64,000 bases of DNA from Rhabdochlamydiaceae bacterium (GTDB taxonomy: Bacteria > Chlamydiota > Chlamydiia > Chlamydiales > Rhabdochlamydiaceae). This document shows, one piece after another, positions 14,279 to 16,296 of this stretch (positions within the stretch are counted from its first letter, which is position 1; every line of letters begins with the position of its first letter). The notes under the pieces are model-generated. The model saw nothing but the letters and a program-made list of their open reading frames with translations, was not told the origin of the DNA and searched no databases. The translations under genes and the position numbers were made by a program. The stretch spans positions 192,001 to 256,000 of the forward strand of contig JAJREF010000001.1 of the NCBI GenBank assembly GCA_047459655.1, given 5' to 3'.

Positions 14279-15166
14279 ATGGTTTCAGCCGCAGCTGCCT
14301 CTGATCCTGGAAGTTCTGTCCCCGCAATTTTTCATGATGGTTCTAGACCCTCAGAGTTATATTTTATAACGTCTATCGAAAATGTGCACTCAATTCTCAA
14401 GCATGGAATTTTGTCTCATAAACGGGCGGCTAGCCATAACCCCACAAGTATTGCTAACGATGAGGTTCAGAGTAGGAGAGAACACAAAATATTTTCTAAT
14501 CCAGATCGCGAACAAACAGCTAAAGAACGACTCCCCATTCATAGATGTGTAAATTTGTACATAAGGGCTCACAATGCTATGCTTTTTGTAAAAAAAGAGC
14601 AGAGGGCTGATTTGTGTGTATTTAGAATACATCCACAAATTCTTGGACGGTGCGAGGTTGTCATTGCAGATCGAAATGCATCTAAAGATGACGCACGTTT
14701 TTATCAAGCTAGAGACTTTTGTTTTTCTCCGGTGAGTTCAGAAATGCTTCAAAATCCCCTGTCTTTGGTATGGAATGATAAAGAGACACTAGGAAAAGCA
14801 GAAAAAAGAAAATATGTTAGACAAGCTGAAGTACTGATTCCTTATGCACTCCACCCAAGCTATATCCAAGGAATTTTTGTTGCGGATTCAAGGGCAAGAG
14901 AAAAGCTTCTTAATATAATAAACGGGACTAAATACAAAGATAATTTACCCGTAGACATACATCCTACCCTGTTTTTTTCAACTGATACTAAGAACCGGGA
15001 AGGAACGAATCCTCTTGCACGTATTAACGCCGCTCCTTTGCGTAATGGAGTTTATCCTCGCTTACATGAAGAACTTCCAGAGAGTTCTGATGAGGAACAC
15101 GAAACTCATGTGGAACAAGATTTCTCGCTTCCTATGGAAGAAGATATAGCAGGGGTAGATGAATAG
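14279..15166 (+). CDS. darT: DarT-family ssDNA ADP-ribosyltransferase (DUF4433) with N- and C-terminal extensions
   Basis: LYFIT.IEN..SIL..GILS, VQSRR, VNLY...NAML, DRNAS and catalytic QAEVL motifs; AAGGAG RBS; followed by a macrodomain gene. Confidence 0.88.
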   Translation: MVSAAAASDPGSSVPAIFHDGSRPSELYFITSIENVHSILKHGILSHKRAASHNPTSIANDEVQSRREHKIFSNPDREQTAKERLPIHRCVNLYIRAHNAMLFVKKEQRADLCVFRIHPQILGRCEVVIADRNASKDDARFYQARDFCFSPVSSEMLQNPLSLVWNDKETLGKAEKRKYVRQAEVLIPYALHPSYIQGIFVADSRAREKLLNIINGTKYKDNLPVDIHPTLFFSTDTKNREGTNPLARINAAPLRNGVYPRLHEELPESSDEEHETHVEQDFSLPMEEDIAGVDE

Positions 15167-16296
15167 CGTAAGTAGATATTTTTTTTGCGCTTCAGAAGGC
15201 AGTATTTACGATGTAACGCGGCGGGGTATTTGGCATGATATGCCTTTGAACCATGGGCTTGATCCAATTTCTTCTTCTACCGTGGTAATTCTTAAAGATG
15301 ATGGAAGAGAAGCAAGTGCAACGGATGTAAAATTGTCTAAATATGTTCGAGTTATATCTAACCCTTCTGCTTATTTAGAGAGTTGGGAAGGGAACCGACT
15401 TAATGTGTTTTTAGTAGAAATTAATCCTAGGATTATAAACAGACCAGACATTTTAAAAATTCAAAGAATTAGAGATAAGAGAATTGAATTTCTAAAAAAT
15501 ATTATGGTCGATTTAAGCGAAGTTCTACGTATTGTTGTTAGCTCCAAGAATGTTGAAAAAAAATTACGCGAGGTTATTAAGGAAGATCTGTGTAAAATTT
15601 CGATTGTTGTTGAGCCTCAGTTATTTGGTTTAGACATTCAAACTTCTTCACATCTTGATAAGGGGGTTGTAATTTCTCAATCTATTGCTCAGCCTGCTGG
15701 ACCAGTCCCTACTTCCGAAAAACTTGATCTTATAAAAGTCTGTAAAGGAGATCTATTACTATCTCCTATGCAGACCCATGTTAATACCGTGAACTGTGTA
15801 GGCATAATGGGAAAAGGCATTGCTTTATCCTTTAAGAAAAGATATCCAGAAATGTTTAAAGATTACGCGAGTAAATGCAAAAAGAAAAGAGGTGAAATTA
15901 GGAAAGCCTTACCCTTATGCTCTAGGAAATGGAAGGACCATCTTGAACTTTCCAACAAAAGGCCATTGGAAAGAAAACTCTAAAATAGAGGATGTTAAGT
16001 CAGGGCTTCAGTATTTAGTTGCACATATTAAAGAATGGAATATCCGATCAATTGCGCTGCCTCCTTTAGGTTGCGGGAATGGGAATTTAAGTTGGGATGA
16101 TGTCTTTCCGATAATGCGTGAATATCTTGCTCCGTTGAATATCCCTGTAGAAATTTATGCTCCCCATGATGCCTATTCTTTTGGACAGCCCCTTCAGGCT
16201 ATTCCGCCAAGACCTCGAAAAAGAAAAAGTGAAGACCAGGGGGCTGGACCATTATCTAAATATTTCAAGGCTGAAGTGAAAGAATGGACGCACTAA
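15159..16296 (+). CDS. darG: Fusion of a degenerate DarT-like domain and a DarG-type macrodomain, with NLS-like tail (one frameshift at ~15880 A-run)
   Basis: GDLL..HVNTVNCVGIMGKGIAL.FK..YP, ILNFPTKGHW and SIALPPLGCGNG.L.W are DarG/TARG1-type macro motifs; 8-nt ATGAATAG overlap with darT. Confidence 0.85.

Follow-up and report, generated by a model that had tools for sequence, protein, structure and literature searches.

A DarTG2 variant of chlamydia-like bacteria in which the predicted antitoxin begins with a degenerate DarT domain

Introduction

Why would an antitoxin begin with what looks like a copy of its own toxin? The question is raised by a toxin-antitoxin locus in the window, a stretch of 64,000 nucleotides (positions 192001-256000 of its contig) from a 1.6-Mb, 82%-complete genome that holds the pair in one copy. 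In DarTG2, as described in PMC5179494 and PMC7003065, DarG combines a macrodomain that erases the mark set by the toxin with a C-terminal domain that sequesters the toxin; sequestration of DarT by this C-terminal domain is reported for EPEC (PMC7003065). Toxicity of the T. aquaticus and EPEC DarTs was rescued by the macrodomain alone (PMC5179494, PMC7003065), so that an antitoxin can do without a binding module. The original prediction for the window was that a dead DarT copy, fused in front of the antitoxin macrodomain, serves as a DNA-targeting or toxin-binding module.

Results

The locus has the following features, in window coordinates:

14279-15166, plus strand: darT toxin gene, 295 aa, Pfam DarT 108 bits
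14978-15163, plus strand: C-terminal tail of the toxin, 62 aa, net charge -11
15035-15055, plus strand: PLRNGVY motif in the toxin tail, common to the linker of single-chain DarT-macrodomain fusions
15083-15097, plus strand: acidic SSDEE in the toxin tail, 3' of PLRNGVY
15159-16296, plus strand: antitoxin gene (pseudo-DarT, linker, macrodomain and basic tail), true product ~378 aa
15159-15632, plus strand: pseudo-DarT domain, residues 1-158, Glu110 retained
15633-15731, plus strand: linker with a short D..F.I-type motif
15732-16158, plus strand: DarG-type macrodomain, PADLOC DarG E 1e-22 and 3e-40 on two frames
15879-15883, plus strand: A-run with one surplus base, an apparent frameshift due to assembly error
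15958-15960, plus strand: FPTK lysine, counterpart of the catalytic lysine K80 in T. aquaticus DarG (alignment to 5m31)
16159-16293, plus strand: short, basic, low-confidence tail, where DarG has a C-terminal domain of ~190 aa
16210-16227, plus strand: RPRKRK in the antitoxin tail

The start of the antitoxin gene overlaps the end of darT by 8 nt. The window displays the antitoxin as two ORFs, with the frameshift inside the macrodomain. An independent contig (run X1) has one base fewer at 15879 and is otherwise identical over 14684-16226, so the antitoxin gene continues to 16296; true pseudogenisation of the macrodomain is thereby ruled out. Intact relatives of the antitoxin exist (P0004, P0005, P0032). 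When ~10 other genes of the assembly were probed, four were split in like manner. Many apparent frameshifts, affecting mlaF, tamB and tamA-like genes, were seen at 10166-10974, at 16406-21646 and elsewhere in the window; they are consistent with homopolymer assembly errors, and in G001 and G002 mlaF forms a single ORF. Promoters, terminators or repeats above chance were not found at 14000-16500, and none of the RNA data sets listed contained the locus.

The window also carries a SycD/LcrH chaperone cluster, the Mla transporter and tamB; together with a DUF562 gene at the corresponding site in a relative, this gene content suggests a chlamydia-like intracellular bacterium. Of the read sets that match, the best is a lake-water metagenome, perhaps the sample from which the genome came. 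The pair lies in a slot between tamB and the SycD cluster (window 14149-16405), which was compared in two genomes of the same genus and one other relative (L050:5823-6869, L051:5740-7158, L052:4288-6177). In these four related genomes the slot holds the darT pair or a Fic, archaeal-type ATPase or DUF562 gene. Occupation by other genes in the relatives suggests that the pair is mobile cargo. The neighbouring four-gene cluster (11876-14148, minus strand) encodes a 180-aa protein, the SycD/LcrH chaperone, a 261-aa hydrophobic protein and a 183-aa protein, and is conserved in the three relatives examined. The three genes flanking the chaperone had no Pfam match above cut-off; the 261-aa and 183-aa proteins look like a translocator pair. 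Further away, the low-GC stretch at 49181-58653 (0.32-0.39) is a candidate effector region. Neither Pfam nor NCBIfam matched its long ORFs of 971 and 825 aa, and it also contains a protein-kinase-like ORF (57442-58653). Autotransporter-like gene pieces were found at 31312-35636 (minus strand), with a transposase-like ORF inserted at 34411-34857 (by eye).

The toxin looks like an intact DarT. Its DarT domain (residues ~24-233) scored 108 bits with Pfam PF14487 (cut-off 22.5), and the protein stayed below the cut-off of the NCBIfam equivalog NF048013 (76.8 vs 150). Residues R67, H88, Y94, M101, N133 and E184 are invariant in 21/21 aligned DarTs and correspond, in a profile alignment to 7omv, to Thermus R51, H65, Y71, M78, H119 and E160, whose roles are described in PMC9967889 and PMC11543638. 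The R51, H65, Y71, M78, Asn and E160 equivalents are likewise invariant in all 17 tailed toxins and fusions (see below). At the H119-equivalent position the window toxin has Asn, which it shares with the 7omu, 7yk3 and 8baq chains, and base specificity was therefore not derived from it; guanine specificity was considered and rejected, the thymidine-type chains 7yk3 and 7omu having Asn as well. The toxin tails, 40-100 residues long, are acidic in most cases (net charge -6 to -18 in 6/9). Several toxins also have a Ser/Ala/Pro-rich N-terminal extension.

The first ~155 aa of the antitoxin had been aligned colinearly with DarT by eye, on the strength of five pairs of segments. For the single pair of domains the similarity is weak. 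BLASTP gave E = 0.37, which is not significant, local alignment to the adjoining toxin gave z = 3.9 (300 shuffles), and the C-terminal half of a global alignment of the window pair was out of register. The domain scored 15.5 bits with Pfam DarT, under the cut-off of 22.5, and E = 0.0014 with PADLOC DarT. Family profiles, however, were significant. Aligning 14 N-terminal domains with 32 DarT domains by hhalign yielded a probability of 97.4% (E 1.3e-11), with residues 4-157 of the pseudo domain placed colinearly on toxin residues 24-233. The real score was 78.5, compared with at most 20.7 in 100 column shuffles and 15.1 for the reversed profile. All five segment pairs are present in this alignment, together with a further N-terminal match (YFF..SI...RGIW on LYFI..NV..KHGIL). 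A template-free AlphaFold2 model of the domain, built from 14 rows, reached pLDDT 89.8. When it was searched against 48,161 chains, ranks 1-4 were all DarT structures, namely 7omu (Z 13.9, 146 aligned residues, 2.6 A), 7omv (11.9), 8baq (11.1) and 7yk3 (10.1), and rank 5 was Tpt1 (Z 8.0). Matches in the ESM Atlas (0.89-0.91, unnamed clusters, ~126/256 features in common) were uninformative. Profile and predicted structure both confirm a degenerate DarT at residues 1-158 of ORF 15159, with the DarT fold and colinear homology, and without most of the catalytic residues and the substrate-recognition loop.

The catalytic losses are extensive. Across 12 pseudo domains the Arg, His, Tyr, Met, Asn and Glu positions are kept in 1, 0, 1, 0, 0 and 7 rows, respectively, the Arg column lying in a loosely aligned stretch; one further row has Asp for Glu. 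The base-recognising residue is substituted in all 12, and ~48 residues past this position are deleted. The QSRR and DRNA segments, described earlier as lost, are indeed gone, the former by substitution and not by deletion, the latter by substitution followed by the ~48-residue deletion. The NAD-contacting Thr and Asn are mostly Ala and Ser. Family-wide, G23 and I101 alone are near-invariant, and there is no invariant polar residue across 14 rows. Judged by these replacements, the domain has very likely lost DarT catalysis. With Arg, His, Tyr, Met and Asn replaced in a domain of DarT fold, the predicted fusion of a dead DarT copy to a macrodomain is supported.

The macrodomain begins near residue 192 of the antitoxin and is followed by a 45-aa tail. 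FPTK is found in 11/11 full-length relatives aligned and also in the second frame of the window; K80, H82 and W83 of T. aquaticus DarG are described in PMC5179494. The canonical DarG C-terminal toxin-binding domain is absent, as had been stated from the window alone. All 17 pseudo-macrodomain proteins of the family lack it, their tails being 3-100 aa long, and in P0032 the NF048014 profile matches only at its positions 1-155 of 338. The DarG architecture, an N-terminal macrodomain with a C-terminal DarT-binding domain, was thus not found. Modelled at full length, P0032 shows two confidently predicted domains without fixed orientation (pTM 0.54). Basic clusters occur in 15/17 antitoxin tails compared with 119 of 648 genome ORF ends (18%).

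A profile search of 1.84 billion representatives returned 12 matches, one of which (P0047) was a repeat-driven false match and was dropped; a second profile search returned 9. Profile and genome searches together gave 19 proteins with a pseudo domain: 17 with a macrodomain, a 60-aa fragment, and P0038, which joins the pseudo domain directly to an intact DarT and has no macrodomain. The D..F.I-type linker motif accompanies the pseudo domain and is present in P0038 too. The pseudo domain is rare, being found in 3/400 genomes of the order and 1/129 of the taxonomic family. In each of the three genomes that have it (G000, the window genome; G342; G108) an intact darT lies next to the gene; the two overlap in G000 and G342 and are divergent in G108 (L010:423-1223 and 1450-2226). 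The G108 pseudo domain is shortened to ~120 aa, and this pair has neither the acidic toxin tail nor the basic antitoxin tail, a single case of co-loss. From contigs of equal size, P0008/P0048, P0006/P0050 and P0038/P0052 are inferred to be three further pairs. The contigs of P0038 and P0052 have the same size (2746) and are likely one contig. The pseudo domain of P0038 is nearest to that of P0052, a pseudo-macrodomain protein (66% identity; 45-51% to others), so it was probably copied within that locus. A related-locus search of metagenome, genome and viral contigs gave no confirmed relative. In G342 the darT pair is preceded, at a distance of ~5.4 kb, by a second macrodomain-like gene (L042:2049-2657, MacroD-type motifs by eye). 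The order also has two types of ordinary DarTG2 pairs (L003/L007 of G029, L004, L016, L017, L027, L002, L034-L037), and G029 and G399 carry darG-type genes beside the same gapA-linked site, the one in G029 being truncated.

Between the window and G342, dN is 0.45 for the pseudo domain (dS ~2.9, near saturation) and 0.42 for the toxin core. In five close pairs the pseudo domains are 46-61% identical, compared with 48-58% for the toxins. By these substitution patterns the pseudo domain is under purifying selection, and its conservation is similar to that of the toxin. Its mean pairwise identity is 29% (10 full-length domains) vs 57% for the macrodomain, which indicates faster drift.

Eight genomes of the order, seven of them in one genus, encode single-chain DarT-macrodomain proteins of 398-466 aa, whose active sites are complete and which lack the DarG C-terminal domain:

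Genomes: G094, G257, G370, G438-G442
Loci: L011:1486-2871, L012:1483-2883, L013:931-2127, L022, L026, L028, L031, L032

Searches returned no second DarT-fold match in these genomes. Three of the fusion linkers contain an SPKK/SPKR motif, which we take to be histone-like. In a core-domain tree of 37 rows, nine tailed toxins and the eight fusions formed one clade (99/98; 97/91 under a mixture model). A PL.N..Y/F motif follows the DarT domain in 7/9 tailed toxins and 3/3 fusions scanned, and 20 other aligned DarTs terminate where it stands. Because the toxins are sister to the fusions and the linker motif is retained, the pair probably arose by tandem duplication of a single-chain DarT-macrodomain gene with complementary losses. 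Copy 1 would have lost the macrodomain and kept the start of the linker as an acidic tail, and copy 2 would have lost transferase activity. The pseudo domain itself has a long branch (4.4) and lies outside the toxin and fusion clade in the best tree; grouping with the toxins was not rejected (p-AU 0.395). Window-type macrodomains did not fall with those of the fusions; in the best tree they stand, with weak support (71/29), next to four ordinary, L004-type DarGs. Their grouping with the fusions was not rejected either (p-AU 0.23), and L004-type DarGs carry a 15-20-residue insertion absent from window-type macrodomains and fusions. P0042 and P0044 (partial) and P0033 are omitted from the trees, and L038 from the macrodomain tree. 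An origin from a toxin duplicate joined to a truncated darG is therefore a possible alternative route. The description of the domain as a duplicate of its own toxin holds at the level of the DarT family and is more tentative for these two genes themselves. The duplication event dates far back, as judged from 19 proteins with 29% mean identity among 10 full-length domains, the domain has a long branch, and a duplicated DarT-macrodomain fusion is a likelier source than the toxin itself.

Discussion

The pair resembles DarTG2, as presented in PMC5179494, PMC7003065 and PMC11543638, in that the toxin gene comes first and catalytic residues are kept; the antitoxin gene is directly downstream and encodes a DarG-type macrodomain with the K80-equivalent lysine. 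Differences are found in both partners. The antitoxin lacks the C-terminal toxin-binding domain and its macrodomain stands behind a dead DarT domain, and the toxin has a 40-100-residue, mostly acidic tail and Asn at the H119 position. A predicted DarTG2-like mode of action combined with a different antitoxin architecture makes this pair, as far as its genes reveal, a new DarTG2 variant. The eight fusions of the chlamydial order and 7omu share the DarT fold, linker and macrodomain and the absence of the DarG C-terminal domain. 7omu, the best structural match, is a 406-aa Thermosipho africanus DarTG chain, which may not be a natural fusion. The fusions differ from the window antitoxin in that their DarT domain has all catalytic residues. 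PARP13, TASOR and wheat SRO1, among the structural matches here, have an ART fold without an active site, and such pseudo-ART domains serve binding roles; unlike the present domain, they occur outside toxin-antitoxin operons and are not paralogues of an adjacent toxin. Tri1 is a bifunctional immunity protein in which an ADP-ribosyl eraser is preceded by an N-terminal part expected to block the transferase. Its blocking element, however, is no copy of the toxin, and the substrate is protein and not DNA. Four presumed pseudoenzyme ART families are reported from Legionella (PMC12522546). In full-text searches, with supplements and most subscription papers outside their scope, no description of a pseudo-DarT antitoxin was found.

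By analogy with DarTG2 biochemistry, the intact-looking toxin likely ADP-ribosylates single-stranded DNA and the macrodomain likely removes the ADP-ribose mark. The dead domain would bind and restrain the toxin, standing in for the absent DarG C-terminal domain, and the acidic toxin tail perhaps pairs with the basic antitoxin tail and aids binding. We tentatively put such binding, with or without help from the tails, first among the possible roles. The wider scheme, in which a duplicated writer-eraser became a pair whose pseudo-toxin binds the live toxin and replaces the binding domain of DarG, is possible and is advanced with a little more caution. P0038 keeps the module without a macrodomain and its nearest relative is P0052, and so action on the toxin fits better than service to the macrodomain. 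The oppositely charged tails and their co-loss in G108 hint at a second contact.

Other roles were weighed. The pair might be directed at a eukaryotic host, writer and eraser being secreted by type III secretion, with the dead domain acting as a chaperone-like or host-protein-binding element and nuclear localisation directed by the basic tail of the antitoxin. It adjoins the SycD/LcrH cluster, several toxins have the Ser/Ala/Pro-rich extension, and the basic clusters of 15/17 tails (18% background) presumably resemble nuclear localisation signals. We regard this as unlikely. In three relatives the slot is occupied by a Fic, archaeal-type ATPase or DUF562 gene, as a cargo slot would be, and adjacency to type III secretion genes was accordingly discarded as specific evidence. 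Moreover, the G342 and G108 loci have different neighbours, the antitoxin has no N-terminal extension, and the overlapping toxin-antitoxin order is the usual layout of toxin-antitoxin systems.

It is rather improbable that the dead domain is an integrated decoy or sensor, which would bind phage or competitor proteins targeting DarT and so protect or trigger the toxin. An outer fold kept without its active site, the quick surface drift (29% mean identity), the patchy spread over the order and fusion to either partner would all suit a decoy. A cognate inhibitor, though, is not known, and viral contigs gave no confirmed relative of the domain.

We rate as just as improbable the DNA-targeting role of the original prediction, in which the domain would bind single-stranded or ADP-ribosylated DNA and bring the macrodomain there. 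The DarT fold, the replacement of the conserved Asn92 by Arg in 9/12 pseudo domains and a flexible linker permitting reach (pTM 0.54) speak for it. It is disfavoured because the recognition segment of ~48 residues is deleted, with the base-recognising residue replaced throughout, and because the pseudo domains carry less positive charge than the toxins (net -7 to +6 vs +5 to +18 for nine tailed toxin cores). In P0038, furthermore, the copy sits on a toxin with no macrodomain to target.

That the domain is a structural relic, kept for macrodomain expression, translational coupling or stability alone, is very unlikely. A remainder is what a duplicated fusion is expected to leave, and elsewhere the macrodomain alone is a sufficient antitoxin, but the dN of the domain is as low as that of the active toxin, its model folds confidently by itself and shows no fixed packing on the macrodomain (pTM 0.54), and it was independently retained on P0038. 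Least probable of all is a minimal ART-fold enzyme or NAD/ADP-ribose binder of other chemistry: Glu in 7/12 rows and Asp in 1, the near-invariant G23 and small ART-fold proteins such as Tpt1 as the next structural matches are outweighed by the missing Arg, His, Tyr and Met, the mostly Ala/Ser replacement of the NAD-contacting residues and the lack of any invariant polar residue in 14 rows.

If toxin binding by the dead domain is true, it would provide a natural DarT-fold inhibitor and a lead for controlling DarT2, which is also studied as a drug target. DarT2 is used as a DNA-editing tool (PMC13368585). The active-looking single-chain fusions pose a puzzle of their own, namely how a cell copes with a writer and an eraser in the same protein. 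The ancestor-like fusion, the split pair and the form with the pseudo-toxin on the toxin all appear to survive in related lineages, and with three surviving architectures the route is testable by domain swaps. The antitoxin would then have originated by decay of a toxin duplicate, a pseudoenzyme route, and not by recruitment of an unrelated binder, in DNA ADP-ribosylation systems that seem to move among chlamydia-like intracellular bacteria.
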